Shown here piece by piece: positions 1 through 39,383 of a DNA stretch of 64,000 bases. The translations under genes were made by a program, and so were the position numbers. Position 1 is the first letter of the stretch, and each line of letters opens with the position of its first letter. Source of the stretch: a virus; the IMG/VR virus record IMGVR_UViG_3300035676_000002, positions 1 to 64,000 of that record. One strand, written 5' to 3'. Below the pieces are notes generated by a model. It was not told the origin of the DNA, did not search any database, and saw only the letters and a program-made list of their open reading frames with translations.

Positions 1-142
1 GGTATTACGGCGAGGGGGGAGGGGGAAGCGGGGGGAGCGGTGGGGAGCGAGCGAGCGCCAGCGGGGAACGGCAGATTGAGCGCCACTTAATTTGAACGGC
101 AGAACTAGAGCGGAGCGGAGCGCCGGAAGGTGCACAAACGAA

Positions 143-173
143 AGCGGCAGCGGGAACCTTCCCCGCTGCCGCT
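143..173 (-). terminator. Intrinsic terminator of the leftmost minus-strand operon
   Basis: Hairpin AGCGGCAGCGGG / CCCGCTGCCGCT followed on the minus strand by TTTCGTTT, just after the stop at 201. Confidence 0.55.
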
Positions 174-200
174 CCGCTCCCGCTGGCGCTTCGCTTCCGC

Positions 201-638
201 TCACGCTTTGGGGAAGGGATTATTCCATGCCAGCAAGTGTGAAGCGCAAAGGTGCACGCTCAACCCGTAAGCGTGAGCGAGCGCAATTGAGAGCGAGCGG
301 AGCGCTTCGCTTTTGTTGCTTGTGCAATCGCAAGCCACTTCCCAAGCCCAAAGCCAGAACCTTACCACTTCAGCGGGGAGCGGCACGCTTCCCGTGGCTT
401 CCCCCAAAGCGGCAATCTCAAGCGCTCCCAAGCCAGCAAGCGGCACGCTCCCCGCTTCCGCTTTCGCTTGCACCACTTCCCGATTGAAGCGCTCCCCATT
501 GCACACTTCGCAAAGGTAAATCAGATTGCGAGCGCTCCCCTTTGCGCTCCCGCTGGAGCGCTTCACCATTGCACAGCAAACCGCTTCCGCTTGGTGACAC
601 TTGCCACACTTCCTAGGTTTGAACGTTCCCGCTTTCAT
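201..638 (-). CDS. Zn-ribbon protein (CxxC...CxxC), 145 aa
   Basis: Start moved to ATG 638 behind RBS GAAGGGA; motif CGKCHQAEAVCC...IYLCEVC. Confidence 0.7.
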   Translation of the reverse strand: MKAGTFKPRKCGKCHQAEAVCCAMVKRSSGSAKGSARNLIYLCEVCNGERFNREVVQAKAEAGSVPLAGLGALEIAALGEATGSVPLPAEVVRFWLWAWEVACDCTSNKSEALRSLSIALAHAYGLSVHLCASHLLAWNNPFPKA

Positions 639-642
639 TTGC

Positions 643-1449
643 TTAGTCCCTTCCGTACCACTTTGCGAGCGCTTCAATGTAACGCTCTTGCTCGCTTGTT
701 TCGATTGATTGCGAGCAATGATTTGCTCTCACGTATTCAATTGCTTCCCGTGCTTTCATTCCCTTAGTCACCAGAACACAAGCAAGGAAGGTTCCCGTTC
801 TGCCGTGGCTTCCGATGCAACAAACAATCACCTTCCCAGCGGGGAGCATGGAAAGCAAATCAAGCCAGAAGGCAAACCCCACAGCGGGAGCGGCGTGGTC
901 AGTCCAATTGAGCGAAAGCACGGGAACGGGAGCGAAGCAATATTGATTCAGCGCTTCAAAATTGCTCCCCTCAAGTTTGGGAGCGCTCCCCACAAAGCGA
1001 GTCACCGGCGCTTTATAGGTGCCGCTGCAATCAATCACCAAGGAAGCGCCAGCGCTCACCAAGCGCATTGCTGCCGCTCCCGCAATCGTGCCGCTCCCGT
1101 TCTGATTTTCAAAGGTCACAAGCGGAGCGCTCCCGGTATGATTGCAAGCGGGTTTATTGTGCCACGCTTGGGAATAACCGCTTCCCGTTCCCCACACTGC
1201 CGCTGCCGCTTTCTTGTTGGGCTTGTTTTCTCTGAACAAGCGGCAATTGCAATTCTCACACTCCAAATCGTTTACGTGAAACAAGCGCTTGTGTGCACAC
1301 TCGCAAACGCTTTCTAGTTCAATCCCAAAGCTAAACGCCATTGCTTCCGAAAGCGTGGCTTCAGCTTTGCCGCTTGTGGCTTCCGCTTTTGCGTTCTGAG
1401 GGGAGCGCTTCCGCTCCCCTCCCTTCCCCTTGCGCTCCCTTGTTTTCAT
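643..1449 (-). CDS. Dual-specificity/tyrosine phosphatase (PTP fold, CDKN3-like) with N-terminal Cys-rich segment
   Basis: P-loop Cx5R VCCIGSHGRTGT, WPD-like WTDHAAP, Q-loop SIETSEQ. Confidence 0.85.
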   Translation of the reverse strand: MKTRERKGKGGERKRSPQNAKAEATSGKAEATLSEAMAFSFGIELESVCECAHKRLFHVNDLECENCNCRLFRENKPNKKAAAAVWGTGSGYSQAWHNKPACNHTGSAPLVTFENQNGSGTIAGAAAMRLVSAGASLVIDCSGTYKAPVTRFVGSAPKLEGSNFEALNQYCFAPVPVLSLNWTDHAAPAVGFAFWLDLLSMLPAGKVIVCCIGSHGRTGTFLACVLVTKGMKAREAIEYVRANHCSQSIETSEQERYIEALAKWYGRD

Positions 1450-1480
1450 CGCTCCTGCCCCTTCCCAGCGCTTTTAACGC

Positions 1481-3178
1481 TTAGTTCTGAAAGAGAGCGC
1501 AAACGCTCTCTTTAATTTCTTCCACGCTTACGCTGCCGCTTCCCACTTCCACGCTCCACAAAGCGCAATCAACGGGAAGGTAAAGAGCGGCGCTCCCCGC
1601 TTTGCTGGGGAGCGTGGCAAACCCCATTGCTTCCGCTGCCGTGAGCGATGCAATCAACTCGCTTGTCACGGGAAGAGTGGCTTCCTTGTAACCGCTGTGT
1701 CCCTTTGCTGTGGCTTGAATTCTGATTTGACCGCTCCCCTCCAGCGTTCTGATTTGCAGCGTGAGAATTGCCACGGGTTTAATCTCACGCTTGAACACCT
1801 TAAGCGCTCGCTCACGCTCCCACACTTGCTCCGCTTCAGAATCAAGGATTGCGCGCAAAGTGGGAAGCAAGCCCACGATTGTTTTCGCGTTCTGGCTTGC
1901 CGCTTTGTCAAAATTGTCGGTGCTCCCAAACTTTGTGAGAAGCGCTCCCCCATTATGGGAAGTGTGCACGATAGTATTGAGCGCCTTCTTACATTCCCCC
2001 AGCGCTTTGTCTGAAGGCTGGCGCACGTAAGCGGTAATCGCGTTTGTCAAATCAATCACCGCTTTGGTGCAATTCCACCACGCCACTCCACCAAAGCCGG
2101 AACACCACTTGTGGGTAAGGAAGGTTTGCGATGCTTTGCACAAGCGGAGCGTGCTTTGCGGGAAGGTGCACAACGCTTCCTTGTAAACTTGCGAGCGTGA
2201 CAAACCGGAGCGCTTTGCGTGCCGCTCTTCCCCTAAGCACGCTGCCGTTCCCAAGCGGCAAGCCCAATTGAGCGCCACTCCCAAAATGAAAGCGCCGGAA
2301 GGGGAAGCGGGGAGCGTGATTGAGTTATGCAAGGCAAACAAAATCACCTTCAAAGCGCTGTGGAGCGCTTCAGCGTCTACCGTGAGCGGCAATCCCAAAC
2401 CACGCATAACATCCCCGTGGAAGGTGCGGGGAGCGCTCACCTTCAGCGTTTGCCCCACAGCGGGAGTGTAAGTGGTGACAAAGGGAACACCACTTGATTG
2501 AGCATGGATTGCAGCGTGGCTTGTGAGCGAAGCGGTGGGAGCGTAACAAACGCTTCCCTTGGGAAGAGTGGGAACAAGCGCTTCCCACTCCAGCGGGGAG
2601 TAAATTGAAGGGTCAATAATTTTCGTTACCTTCACCGGGGAAGGGACAAAATCGAGCACCGTTTTAACTTCCACGCCTTCCCGCAATTGCACAGCATAAG
2701 TGTGGTCTGCCGTTCCCACAACTTCAATATACGCTGCCGTTCCCTTGTCACCGCTCAAACCCGCTTGATTGCGGGGAAGGTTCCCAAGCTTGCCAGCAAG
2801 GAAAATCTTACGGGTACGCTTCCCCGCTGTGGCACCGTCTGAACCTTCCCCCAGCGCAATCAAGTTATCGCTCACGATAGCAGACCAAGTGGCGCTCACC
2901 GGATGCATAACGCACACTTCCGCTTGTTCATCCGCTGCCGTGGCTTCATTCCACAGCTTCAGCGCTTCCGCTTCGCTCCCGATGCATCGGGAATCAACAA
3001 ACCCGTGTCGGGGAGTTATGGGGCAGGGACGGCAGAAGGGGGACACTTCCCGATTGAGAAATTCCCGCACGTAAAGAATGAGAGCGCCGAAAGTTTGAGC
3101 GATGTAGAAAGTGGGAACCTTCCACGTTGCATCGGAAAGCGCTTGAATTCCCTTTGCCTTCTGTGTTCTCAACTCCAT
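1481..3178 (-). CDS. PPDK/PEP-synthase-like dikinase: ATP-grasp-like N-terminus, phosphohistidine swivel domain, unknown C-terminal domain (565 aa)
   Basis: SLTSHAAIHAQSSGVP matches the PEP-utiliser mobile-domain motif TSHAAI..R..G.P; N-terminal KAKGIQAL..ATWKVP resembles the GGKA..L......VP start of PEP/pyruvate-binding domains; start at ATG 3178 behind GAAGGGA. Confidence 0.7.
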   Translation of the reverse strand: MELRTQKAKGIQALSDATWKVPTFYIAQTFGALILYVREFLNREVSPFCRPCPITPRHGFVDSRCIGSEAEALKLWNEATAADEQAEVCVMHPVSATWSAIVSDNLIALGEGSDGATAGKRTRKIFLAGKLGNLPRNQAGLSGDKGTAAYIEVVGTADHTYAVQLREGVEVKTVLDFVPSPVKVTKIIDPSIYSPLEWEALVPTLPKGSVCYAPTASLTSHAAIHAQSSGVPFVTTYTPAVGQTLKVSAPRTFHGDVMRGLGLPLTVDAEALHSALKVILFALHNSITLPASPSGAFILGVALNWACRLGTAACLGEERHAKRSGLSRSQVYKEALCTFPQSTLRLCKASQTFLTHKWCSGFGGVAWWNCTKAVIDLTNAITAYVRQPSDKALGECKKALNTIVHTSHNGGALLTKFGSTDNFDKAASQNAKTIVGLLPTLRAILDSEAEQVWERERALKVFKREIKPVAILTLQIRTLEGSGQIRIQATAKGHSGYKEATLPVTSELIASLTAAEAMGFATLPSKAGSAALYLPVDCALWSVEVGSGSVSVEEIKESVCALFQN

Positions 3179-3182
3179 TTGC

Positions 3183-3317
3183 TTAGTCCCTTCTGGCTTT
3201 GTTGCGTTTAGGTTCTGAAGCCACTTTTGCCCCTTGTGAGCGCTGGCGCTTTGGTGGGGAGCGGCAGCGGGGAGCGCCGGAAGCGGCAAGCGGCAAGCAA
3301 TGTTCAAACGTCACCAT
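3183..3317 (-). CDS. Small basic hypothetical protein (44 aa)
   Basis: ATG behind AAGGAAG; ends in the same GAAGGGACTAAGCAAATG junction as the phosphatase gene. Confidence 0.4.
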   Translation of the reverse strand: MVTFEHCLPLAASGAPRCRSPPKRQRSQGAKVASEPKRNKARRD

Positions 3318-3988
3318 CGGCGCTTCCTTACCCGTTCCCCTTCCCCTAGGGAAGCGGAAAATTCCCACGCTCCCCGCTGAAGCGCTCTAAGCGCTTGATT
3401 TTGCTCGCTTTTCCGCTCTCAAACTAAATTTTCGCTCCCTTGATTTTGCCACGCTGAAAATCGGTAAAACGATTGATCGAACGCTAAAACAAGCCCAAAC
3501 AAGCGCCGCGGTGGTGATTTTCCCTTGCAATTCTAGCACGTTAGAGCGTGCCCCGTTTTATAACGAAAATTGAAAGTGGCTTTAATTTTGCCACTTCCAG
3601 CGGGAGCGCTCCCCATATTCAAACCCCATTTAATTTTGCGCTCCCCGCTGGCGCTCCCCGCTGGCGCTTCCGGCGCTCCCCGCTGGCGCTCCGCTCCCCA
3701 CTTCCGCTCCGCTCCCCGCTGGGATTAAACCCCACTCAATTCTCACAATTGACAAAGCGCTTTCTCAATGGTAAGAATGGCTTCCCAGCGGGGAAGCGCT
3801 GGGGAGCGTGATTTTGCCCCTTCTAATGAAGGGGAAAGCGTGATTTTCGCGTTATCAGACCTTGCCCCTTAAACGCTCACAATTGCCCCACAAGCCACGC
3901 TGAAAATCGGGAGGGGCAAGGTAAGGGGCAAGGTGCGTTTGCGCTTCCTAGGTCAATTGTGCGATTTTGCCCATATTTTAGGCAAAAG

Positions 3989-4054
3989 TTATCCACAGGC
4001 TTTTCGGTGGGTTATCCACAGGTTTTCCACAGGGGAACCGGGAAGTTATCCACA
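3989..4054 (+). promoter_or_regulatory. Cluster of four co-oriented DnaA boxes
   Basis: TTATCCACA at 3989, 4012, 4046 and TTTTCCACA at 4023, each within GTTWTCCACAGG. Confidence 0.8.
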
Positions 4055-4183
4055 GGCGGTGACGGAATTTGTTAAAGCCCAAAAGGTGACAGATTTTGTC
4101 GCTGAATTTTAAGTGGGGTTTAATCCGGCGCTTCACCGGGAATCTGACACTTTCGCCTTTTCTTCGCCCCCGGTCGCCCACCG

Positions 4184-4236
4184 GCCCCGCCCCCGACCCC
4201 GCCCCCCGGCCCCGCCCCGCCCCTCCCCCCAGCCCC
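4184..4236 (-). repeat. (CCCCG)n tract; G-quadruplex-forming on the minus strand
   Basis: At least eight runs of four or more C separated by 1-2 nt. Confidence 0.75.
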
Positions 4237-4243
4237 TAAGACG

Positions 4244-4368
4244 GGCGGAATCTAAGCAGGGCGGAATCTAGGCAGAATCTCGGCGGAACCTCGGCGCGGC
4301 GGAACCTTGGCAGAACCTCCTCTGTCCTACTGATAAGGCACGCGCTAATCCTAAGCATGGCGGAATCT
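4244..4368 (+). repeat. Iteron-like array, 7 x GGCRGAAYCT
   Basis: Copies at 4244, 4260, 4271, 4282, 4298, 4309, 4359. Confidence 0.85.
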
Positions 4369-5306
4369 CTTCCCTTCCTTTTAACCAATACTTTAATTTC
4401 TTTTGCCCAATTGAATTCATTTTTGTAACATGGTCGTTGTGCAAAAGTGGGTATCCAGCCCGTGAGCAACCCTCATTTTACCCCTGATTTTATTGATAAA
4501 ACCCCTATGGTGTAGTTTTTCGTAGACACTTTTAATTTGATTGATTTTTGTGCTTTTTTGTTTGTTTTATGGCAGAAACGCGCGATTTTCCCCTGATATT
4601 TCGCATATTTAGCTCGTTTTGCCTATTTTTTAGGCACTTTCTTTCCAGCCCCTTTTCCCTATTAGCTCCCCCTCCCCTCCCGCCACTCCCTCATCCTAGC
4701 ACACGCACGCAACAAATGCAAATTCAATCGCCTTATGCCCCGCTTTGTCGCTGTTCATTTGATTTCATCCCCCCGTTTTCCTTTGAAATTCAAGTGTTTT
4801 CTAGCTTTTATGCTGTAAGTAGTTGATATATAAGGCTTTTTTTCGTTTTGCAAGACAACGAAAAACCCAACCCCTTGACGTGTAACAAAATAACACACCC
4901 CTAACCCCGCGAAAACACAAAGGAAAACAAACAAAAAGCCCCCGTAAAAAACAGGACAAAATCGACGGTCCACCTAGAAATGCGCCCACAAACGCCCAAT
5001 GCTTCCCCACCCCGCCCATGCTGTTTCCGGCAGTAATAATCCCGAAACACCCCCCACCCCTCTGCCGTCAAATCGAACCATGAAAACAAAGGGGGGGATA
5101 ACCGCACGAAGAGAGGGGATAAGGGCTTTAGGCAGGGGATAGACTCTTATGCTTAGGGGATCGTTTGTAAGACCCTTTCCCTTTAGCGGGAGCATGAGAG
5201 CCACCCTTTTGCTGAATGATAGGCTTAGGCGACTTCACTAATAGAGCAAGCGGATTGATCGTGCCTTTTTTGCAGACTATGGAAATCCGTTTGCGTTTCA
5301 TGGCGT

Positions 5307-5510
5307 TTAATCCCTATCCCGTTGCCCAATAATGTAAATCTGTTCTCGAAAATCCTCCACCGCTTGACCCACCGCAATCAACTCACGCAACGCTTTCAAT
5401 TCTAGCTCTGAAACCGTAACCGTACAAACCCCAGCCCGATTCCCCCCTAAGTTACGCTCAACCATGTTCGCAAAATCAGATACCACTTTAATTACGTAAG
5501 CATTTTTCAT
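5307..5510 (-). CDS. Hypothetical early protein
   Basis: ATG with AAGGAG RBS; last gene of a contiguous operon. Confidence 0.7.
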   Translation of the reverse strand: MKNAYVIKVVSDFANMVERNLGGNRAGVCTVTVSELELKALRELIAVGQAVEDFREQIYIIGQRDRD

Positions 5511-5521
5511 TTTTTATCTCC

Positions 5522-5821
5522 TTATCGCTCGGGAAGCCATGCCACCACTTCCGCTGTGTTCCGAAGGCACGCCGTAGCTGCCTCAATATAGGCGTAGCGC
5601 GTCGAATCAAGGTGCGGCCAGAGGGACGCTTGATAGAGCAAGTCGGAAGCGCGCATAACGCCATTGACGGCACACATAGGCACACTCCCGGCTAGCTCAC
5701 GAACGCGATTATCATACTCAATAAAAGTGTCCTCCGGTATTGGATCACACTCGCAATGGCTTTCGATATCCTTCGCCAACGCAAGCAATGCCGTCGCTGT
5801 TCGCTCAAGAAACTTTGCCAT
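5522..5821 (-). CDS. Hypothetical early protein
   Basis: ATG with GAAGGGG RBS; operon context. Confidence 0.7.
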   Translation of the reverse strand: MAKFLERTATALLALAKDIESHCECDPIPEDTFIEYDNRVRELAGSVPMCAVNGVMRASDLLYQASLWPHLDSTRYAYIEAATACLRNTAEVVAWLPER

Positions 5822-5839
5822 GTTAACCCCCTTCTAATC

Positions 5840-6199
5840 TCACAACCAGAACGGTTCGATTCCACCGGCAAGGTAATGAATAAACCCCTCCGGCCCCTTC
5901 ATCCACTTGTGGTTAAAATCCTTCTGAGGGAACTTTGACAGCCGCTCAACCTTCTCGCCGTAAATAGTCGGCTCTGCGGTGCCGTCCTTCTCGTCGTATT
6001 GCGGATACCACCTGTCGCCGCAACAAGAACAATCCACGCCGTCGTCACAGCCGTTAAAGTACAGCCCAATGCTTTCGGCCCGTTCGTTTGCTTGCTGTGC
6101 GTTTGCTGCCTCGATAATAACCCAATGCGAAATCCCCCGCTTCTCGTCAAAGTCGAAACTTCCGCCCGTGTTATTCTGGTTAAACTCAAAAAATGCCAT
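5840..6199 (-). CDS. Conserved phage hypothetical protein (QNNxGG / DCxCCGDRW family)
   Basis: Motifs FNQNNTGGSF and GLYFNG...DCSCCGDRW that I recognise from many phage early regions. Confidence 0.8.
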   Translation of the reverse strand: MAFFEFNQNNTGGSFDFDEKRGISHWVIIEAANAQQANERAESIGLYFNGCDDGVDCSCCGDRWYPQYDEKDGTAEPTIYGEKVERLSKFPQKDFNHKWMKGPEGFIHYLAGGIEPFWL

Positions 6200-39350: not shown

Positions 39351-39383
39351 TTATCCACAACATAGTGAGGAGGGTTATCCACA
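39351..39383 (+). promoter_or_regulatory. Two DnaA boxes
   Basis: TTATCCACA at 39351 and 39375. Confidence 0.65.

Follow-up and report, generated by a model that had tools for sequence, protein, structure and literature searches.

Positions 1-3964 of the window analyzed here, which covers the initial 64 kb of a linear IMG/VR virus contig of 112,442 bp (IMGVR_UViG_3300035676_000002; full-contig coordinates are designated G000), constitute one allele of an early-gene cassette of ~4 kb, in which genes and spacers are both written with a restricted set of short DNA words. The contig corresponds to an uncultured tailed phage of 108 kb, with genes for a major head protein, portal, large terminase, helicase, SbcCD and ribonucleotide reductase. 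This allele was named A, its counterpart at the other end of the contig Z, and a third allele, found on a related phage contig (L072), Y. Allele A comprises two non-coding stretches and three genes on the minus strand, namely a small gene (o1), a cysteine phosphatase gene and a large gene for a predicted phosphotransferase. As the explanation of the restricted vocabulary we favor, with a probability of about 0.35, a DNA-level selection for the smallest possible set of different words in DNA entering the cell without protection.

The initial annotation of this stretch had described coding and non-coding DNA alike as built from a few words, and our counts agree. In 1-3980 there are 226 copies of AGCG/CGCT (56.8/kb, compared with 7.9/kb over the remaining window), and all five parts of the allele lie at 48-96/kb, while GGGAGC/GCTCCC reaches 10.8/kb against 0.32/kb in the rest (34-fold) and GGGAAG/CTTCCC 8.3/kb against 0.71/kb (12-fold). 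Past 3964 the AGCG/CGCT density falls at once to 6.9/kb, with the GC content unchanged at 0.56; a GC effect was therefore rejected as the cause. Relative to dinucleotide-preserving shuffles, the 4-mer and 6-mer entropies of A lie at z = -64 and -61, whereas 26 ordinary 4-kb windows of the same genome range from -4 to -22, and 1478 distinct 6-mers are present where 2193 are expected from the shuffles. Single 8-mers reach 15-27 copies in 4 kb, and a 3-fold loss of TpA is common to the cassettes. Within the genes there are no exact repeats of at least 16 nt and 12-mers are only 2-3-fold in excess, thus the units are short words rather than copied tracts; an order-5 Markov null over-fits in this repeat test and was set aside. 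Both strands carry the words in A (AGCG 104/122, AGCGG 34/44), whereas polarity is strong in Z and Y (CGGCGTC, 47 top/4 bottom in Z and 36/3 in Y), and the first 130 nt of A have a G/C polarity opposite to that of Z. Neither helical phasing nor a fixed spacing of the words was seen.

The restriction remains significant under a codon-aware null, in which synonymous codons were shuffled while the amino-acid sequence and codon usage were kept: z is about -12 to -22 for the phosphatase and large genes and -8.8/-10.2 for o1, far below the -0.4 to -4 of five control genes. AGCG/CGCT, with 122 copies against 48.5 expected under this null, is present in all three reading frames, and the vocabulary words are 20-fold enriched within genes, again in all three frames. 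Since the effect survives the codon-aware shuffle and appears in every frame, it acts at the DNA level and crosses codon borders, and codon bias was rejected as its cause. A cause in mRNA structure was likewise rejected (z of -4.2 for A, +2.2 for Z and -2.05 for a control). Under the same null GCCC, AGGC, GCTA, CGCG and GATC are depleted 4-10-fold, and enrichments, with z up to 13, are larger than any depletion. Other observations made by eye in the initial annotation were also recovered, namely the absence of GGCC (0 copies), a single GATC (at 3475) and few GAC/GTC words (7.8/kb, against 20/kb in the rest); GTAC, CATG and TCGA have 2-3 copies each in A. Its statement that GGCC and GATC are common later does not hold, as over the other 104 kb they reach only 0.27 and 0.70 of the expected counts. 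The reported scarcity of Asp was reproduced (1 of 145, 5 of 268 and 17 of 565 residues), and a bias in the proteins is real, but it is modest: for the large protein, D/(D+E) has a value of 0.35 in A against 0.57 in Z and 0.59 in Y, and the low value of A is still inside the range of 95 homologues (0.31-0.64, 0.47 +/- 0.07).

The borders of the restricted DNA are sharp. At the inner one, the restriction stops at a stretch identical behind A and Z (3965-4091, + strand), which holds an inverted repeat (TTTTGCC...GGCAAAA) and, all within 66 nt, perfect DnaA boxes TTATCCACA at 3989, 4012 and 4046 and a one-mismatch box TTTTCCACA at 4023. The only two other perfect boxes in the 64 kb lie at 39351-39383, 24 nt apart and near the cumulative GC-skew minimum (~40 kb), and this pair is likelier to be the replication origin than the boxes at 3989-4054. 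At the outer border, the 13-nt word GGTATTACGGCGA (1-13, + strand) begins at the first base of the contig and opens both A and Z, its two copies at 1 and at G000 108372 being the only ones in the genome. The stretch 3965-4091 forms an exact 127-nt overlap with 112316-112442, and this overlap at the right contig end looks like an assembler k-mer vertex. There is no sequence upstream of A on the contig, and the 13-nt start is much shorter than the 127-nt overlap; judging from this contig structure, A-bearing molecules probably end at the 13-nt word, which would be the physical left end of the genome. Around the cassettes we further observed a C-rich tract of CGCCCC-type units to the right of the DnaA boxes (4175-4236), the other strand of which is G4-prone, followed by iteron-like repeats GGCGGAATCT / GGCAGAACCT (4243-4318), both conserved in L072; directly before Z (G000 108000-108371) lies a pyrimidine-rich, low-complexity T-tract stretch with TTGACA-like hexamers, which is conserved before Y.

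The last 4 kb of the contig, allele Z, are homologous to the first 4 kb, although as terminal "repeats" A and Z are only 58% identical in DNA between the 13-mer and the 127-nt stretch, with protein identities of 52% for the phosphatase and 55% for the large protein. Allele Z is as restricted as A (entropy z of -66/-76 against dinucleotide shuffles) in a vocabulary of its own, with GGCGTC/GACGCC, CGGCGT, GGGACG and 82 copies of CCGG: GACG/CGAC, found at 19-35/kb in Z, is missing from A, and GAGC/GCGC, found at 15-25/kb in A, is missing from Z. Conserved residues are encoded by different codons in the two alleles (Ser by AGC in A and TCG/TCC in Z, Pro by CCC and CCG, Thr by ACC and ACG, Glu by GAG and GAA). 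The two alleles have the same codon at 176 conserved residues, where independent choice predicts 161.5, which indicates that they are old and that identity is not actively avoided; recoding to block recombination between A and Z was rejected on this count. At homologous places both alleles carry tandem arrays of 12-13-nt units, GCGCTCCCCGCTG x4.5 in A (a 13-nt array at 3638-3692) and CGGCGTCCCGGT x5.7 in Z, which differ but keep a common TCCC core.

Allele Y was found once, on an independent metagenome contig of 12.7 kb, between homologues of the right-end and left-end flanks. Therefore, the map is circular or terminally redundant, and A and Z share one slot. Between the two phages, identity amounts to 72-79% in the flanks and to 84% for Z against Y. 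Furthermore, the A protein was detected on 7 contigs (JGI, Logan, ENA) and Z on two more, and one ENA protein (P0002, contig of 2885 nt) is a mosaic whose first ~125 residues are Y-like and whose remainder is identical to Z. The multiple sources and the mosaic together indicate that the DNA is real and that the cassettes recombine.

Comparison of Z and Y reveals how the vocabulary behaves over time. Their large genes differ with a synonymous divergence (dS) of 0.59 and a nonsynonymous divergence (dN) of 0.085 (dN/dS 0.14), so that the proteins are under purifying selection, and both alleles are still restricted despite this dS. When the 675 observed Z/Y substitutions were placed at random in 300 trials, the commonest word lost ~42 copies, whereas the largest observed loss was 18; conversely, the null maximum for the gain of a 6-mer was 15, and gains of 24, 18 and 17 were observed. 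The vocabulary is thus maintained yet shifting, with about half of the common-word positions being lineage-specific. For instance, ACGCGT has no copies in Z, in A or in the main genome (window 4400-64000 and on to G000 108300; 104 kb) and 21 in Y, 17 of them in gapless coding alignment, where Z mostly has AAGCGT or its complement, the replacements running in parallel on both strands. Within the Y large gene 11 of the 12 copies are in one frame (xAC GCG Txx), and 7 of the 12 sites change the amino acid, against 28% of differing codons overall. Polarizing these changes by means of A and the protein family gave no result, as the sites are variable.

The initial annotation had attributed the restriction to a purge of restriction or other defense recognition sites in a segment exposed before protection is established. 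Part of this proposal is consistent with our results, as the segment resembles leading pre-early DNA, with a probable genome end and DnaA boxes, and contains ~40% fewer distinct 6-7-mers than ordinary windows. The 6-mers present amount to 45-48% in the cassettes against 76% in controls, the 7-mers to 19-20% against 35%, and Type-I-like bipartite words to 26-29% against 36%. The remainder of the proposal does not fit, because classical sites are purged genome-wide: in the main genome 33 of the 64 palindromic hexamers have 0 copies, with 14-30 expected for each, four more have at most 2 copies each, CCWGG is missing where ~100 copies are expected, and the non-palindromic sites GAAGAC, CACGAG and GGGGAC are also absent. 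The completeness of this main-genome purge is unusual in itself. The cassettes obey nearly all of these genome-wide bans, and their palindromic hexamers are no more depleted than those of controls (49-53 of 64 absent per ~4-kb window, 49 in A, against 45-52). Some palindromes are even piled up: GCGC (62 copies), AGCGCT (29) and GTGCAC (5) in A, CCGG (82) in Z, and ACGCGT (21) and CGCG (47) in Y. Moreover, A and Z use different vocabularies on the same backbone, so a shared list of forbidden sites is not the whole cause. No DNA methyltransferase of families PF00145, PF01555 or PF02086, the three main ones, was found in the phage genome, and a phage methyltransferase shield was rejected accordingly.

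We propose that the cassette, lying between the terminal 13-bp word and a DnaA-box cluster that would act like the injection-stop region of phage T5, enters first and is read by host enzymes before any phage protein is made, and would therefore meet the sequence-specific nucleases of the host naked. Each distinct short word would then be a separate risk of matching some defense target, while more copies of a word already present would add little risk if one hit is already lethal; selection would thus push genes and spacers to re-use few words, many of them from the tandem arrays of the cassette. As the choice of words would be arbitrary, lineages would drift to private vocabularies, and divergent alleles such as A and Z could persist on one backbone through selection that depends on host and on allele frequency, with recombination in the conserved borders exchanging one for the other. 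This minimal-word explanation draws on a restriction that exceeds what composition and codon usage produce, covers coding DNA, non-coding DNA and the A-only gene, and ends no more than a few bases from the A/Z-identical border; on the lower numbers of 6-mers, 7-mers and bipartite words; and on the heavy restriction pressure to which the absence of 33 hexamers and CCWGG and the lack of the three methyltransferase families point. It also draws on the maintenance of the vocabulary between Z and Y, where a gained ACGCGT often involves an amino-acid change, on vocabularies that are private and arbitrary and draw on the words of the arrays, on the coexisting alleles, and on a layout like that of the T5 left terminal repeat, together with the published weight of first-injected motifs: there is experimental support that only motifs in the first-injected DNA count for restriction (PMC12455610), and T5 data indicate that restriction and CRISPR reach the genome only in its first-step DNA (10.1101/866236).

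Several points weigh against selection for a minimal word set. The gain is modest, ~40% fewer 6-7-mers and 20-27% fewer bipartite words, and the 6-mer sets of A and Z overlap 1.26 times as much as independence predicts and are thus not complementary. Palindromes that the main genome bans or avoids have many copies in the cassettes (29 of AGCGCT and 5 of GTGCAC in A, 21 of ACGCGT in Y), and the main genome itself avoids Type II sites, which leaves a later "protection" without an obvious object. The polarity of the words in Z and Y, which A does not share, is not predicted by the minimal-word idea, and the first-step-transfer DNA of T5 has no such restriction. Both first entry and the physical end we infer from the contig structure only.

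A tentative possibility is that the vocabulary is produced or read by an active process, either very-short-patch copying of words, which would be tied to the genome end, or a private recognition code between allele and protein, in which the protein may protect or handle the incoming DNA. In a reading of its own, which we regard as rather unlikely, the words would be dense, lineage-specific recognition sites for a protein acting on the entering or packaged DNA end, the candidates being a factor that ratchets or stops entry, a terminase or a factor binding the DNA end, or a Chi-like signal taming RecBCD/AddAB; coding DNA would hold extra copies of the array units, and the vocabulary would co-evolve with the reader protein. 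The homologous arrays of 12-13-nt units with their TCCC core at the same places in A and Z agree with this, as do the 20-fold enrichment of array words in genes in three frames and the polarity of Z and Y, where the G-rich form is on the strand with its 3' end at the left end, as in the Chi orientation. AGCGG and GAAGCGG, both frequent in A, are the Chi sites of Bacillus subtilis and Staphylococcus aureus. However, the words of A lie on both strands and its first 130 nt oppose Z in G/C polarity, phasing and fixed spacing were not seen, Z and Y differ in about half of their word positions, and no clearly co-varying DNA-binding protein is apparent, as o1 is confined to A and the two shared proteins are enzyme-like. 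It is similarly doubtful that the vocabulary is a functionless product of neutral molecular drive, by which the array units of a recombination-prone terminal repeat would have spread into neighboring DNA, through slippage and the conversion of very short patches, with protein function as the sole limit. Concerted evolution of the arrays, whose units are alike within and different between alleles, would be expected from such a drive, and new word copies do arise at lineage-specific positions far above chance, including the parallel AAGCGT/ACGCGT replacements on both strands; the Y/Z mosaic protein also reveals recombination within the cassette. Nevertheless, with no exact repeats of at least 16 nt in the genes and 12-mers in 2-3-fold excess, conversion tracts would have to be shorter than ~10 nt, and neither the exact end of the restriction at the cassette borders, nor the shared 3-fold TpA loss, nor the obedience to genome-wide bans is explained; the terminal repeat of T5 recombines in every cycle, and nothing similar is seen there. 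Long-tract gene conversion was rejected on the repeat evidence, and a diversity-generating retroelement on the lack of a reverse transcriptase (no PF00078 match in the genome).

A literal purge, in which this segment alone was cleared of specific restriction or defense sites and the frequent words are the remainder, is very unlikely. The single GATC, the missing GGCC, the 2-3 copies each of GTAC, CATG and TCGA and the 4-10-fold depletion of GCCC, AGGC, GCTA, CGCG and GATC are what it predicts, but it is largely refuted by palindromic hexamers no more depleted than in ordinary windows, by bans that extend genome-wide, by 8-mers in 15-27 copies and enrichments exceeding any depletion, and by A and Z avoiding different words on one backbone. 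Least probable by far is an artifact, either a chimeric assembly or a phage contig to which synthetic or contaminant DNA was added; although the contig ends appear graph-made, given the exact 127-nt overlap at the right end, the A protein is found on 7 contigs from three sources and Z on two further ones, the independent 12.7-kb contig has Y in the same slot with homologous flanks, and the proteins, as members of a family of about 100, are subject to purifying selection.

The anatomy of allele A is that of a leftward operon with non-coding ends. After the 13-nt word comes a non-coding word array (14-200; GC 0.70, AGCG/CGCT 96/kb), with G-rich units of 7-9 nt at 10-49 and an inverted repeat (108-131/156-179) that is likely the terminator of the operon. 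Gene o1 (201-638, - strand) encodes 145 aa with a CxxC...CxxC pattern and has no counterpart in Z or Y; a match in the Atlas (HNH, score 0.91) is a lead to an HNH-like protein, and a Pfam scan of o1 gave nothing. It shares a ribosome-site/start motif with the large gene, a repeat at 625-653/3165-3193 covering GAAGGGACTAAGCAAATG. The phosphatase (643-1449, - strand; 268 aa) is of the CX5R cysteine type (CCIGSHGRTG) and has Pfam and phrog profile matches, the best Pfam one being PF22784 (E = 6.7e-6, 26.6 bits, slightly below the cut-off of 27 bits), along with phrog_17568 at 8e-14. The large gene (1481-3178, - strand) encodes 565 aa, of which the N-terminal part is ATP-grasp-like; the protein also has a swivel phospho-His motif (TSHAAIHA) and a helical domain for which no match was found. 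By sequence alone the protein matched no Pfam family and no solved structure; its structural model (pLDDT 85.7) had rifampin phosphotransferase, pyruvate phosphate dikinase (PPDK) and ATP-grasp ligases as best Foldseek matches, and we thus predict a dikinase-like ATP-grasp/swivel-His phosphotransferase. We also observed between these two genes a 21-nt inverted repeat, 90% complementary (1249-1269/1751-1771), of which the commonest words are not the building blocks. The non-coding control region (3179-3964) consists of short blocks conserved in A, Z and Y (e.g., GTAAAACGATTGATCG and CCGTTTTATAACGAAA), separated by allele-specific filler made of vocabulary words, and includes the tandem array and a predicted sigma70-like promoter at 3749-3778 (+ strand).

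Homologues of the large protein numbered 98. The pair of phosphotransferase and CX5R phosphatase (643-3178) also occurs in a distant phage, L025 (8001-11500), where a mild word restriction, with GGCC-rich words, is seen in the DNA that follows the large gene. Apart from this weak case, no word-restricted block of several kb was found in 63 viral loci with large-protein homologues of 21-34% identity, nor in 40 loci with the neighboring SLOG-like protein, and no related locus was retrieved with the A-allele protein alone. No close relative of the phage was found among 50,697 phage records, and near and distant DNA searches of 1-4300 and 40-64 kb against these gave no match. An Rfam scan of 1-6000 found nothing, the border word GGCACCGAGGTATTACGG had 0 matches in viral contigs, and the 15 matches of GTAAAACGATTGATCG there were due to chance, none being accompanied by another cassette feature. 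In the literature, we found no paper on such word-restricted ("dialect") phage cassettes.

The first phage DNA in the cell is the part that host defenses see. If selection for few words, or a private code, operates there, it would represent a sequence-level counter-defense of a kind not described before, would account for the high variability of leading regions, and would reveal that DNA-level selection is able to override codon choice and some amino acids; it would also provide a compositional marker for first-injected modules and genome ends in metagenomic contigs. If an active process produces or reads the vocabulary, phages would have early modules that can replace one another, each written in a DNA "dialect" of its own. 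Further, a conserved early pair, a dikinase-like phosphotransferase with a CX5R phosphatase, is brought to attention.

Among known systems, the first-step-transfer region of T5 (AY587007; Davison, bioRxiv 10.1101/866236) is comparable in occupying a few kb at the left genome end, a position that is probable for the cassette, in having an operon that runs leftward to the end and encodes a protein of ~530-565 aa, a phosphatase-type enzyme and a small protein, and in its untranslated repeat regions and DnaA-box cluster at the inner border, both of which are found here. In T5, dmp, A1 and A2 run leftward to the end, followed by the repeat regions and then by DnaA boxes in the injection stop region, and T5-like phages have 8 such boxes (10.1101/866236). 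No homology to the T5 pre-early proteins A1 and dmp was detected by BLASTP (E = 0.65 for the 565-aa protein against A1, E = 2.2 for the phosphatase against dmp), and the T5 region spans ~10 kb against 4 kb. The long direct terminal repeat of T5 and its two-step injection, which depends on pre-early proteins, would apply to the cassette by analogy only. Moreover, T5 first-step DNA has ordinary word diversity (deficit 0.17-0.29, 69-73% of 6-mers present), and no allelic "dialects" are known in T5. The avoidance of restriction sites in phage and plasmid genomes (PMC12455610; PMC10359461) resembles what this phage displays in lacking 33 hexamers and CCWGG. However, avoidance removes named sites, whereas the cassette cuts words of every kind and multiplies a few, palindromes included, and its alleles differ in the words kept.

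Chi, the uptake signal and DNA uptake sequences (USS/DUS), cyanobacterial HIP1 and the FtsK-orienting polar sequences (KOPS) each consist of one word per genome, at ~0.2-1 per kb genome-wide. As in the cassette, these words are enriched in coding and non-coding DNA to a degree that shapes codon choice and peptides, and like Chi and KOPS the words of Z and Y are polar, whereas those of A are not. The cassette differs in having many related words at 10-57/kb, confined to 4 kb and specific to the allele. Finally, the concerted evolution of tandem arrays is similar in that units are homogenized within an allele and different between alleles at homologous positions; in the cassette, however, the words also fill 2.5-2.9 kb of unique protein-coding sequence without long repeats.

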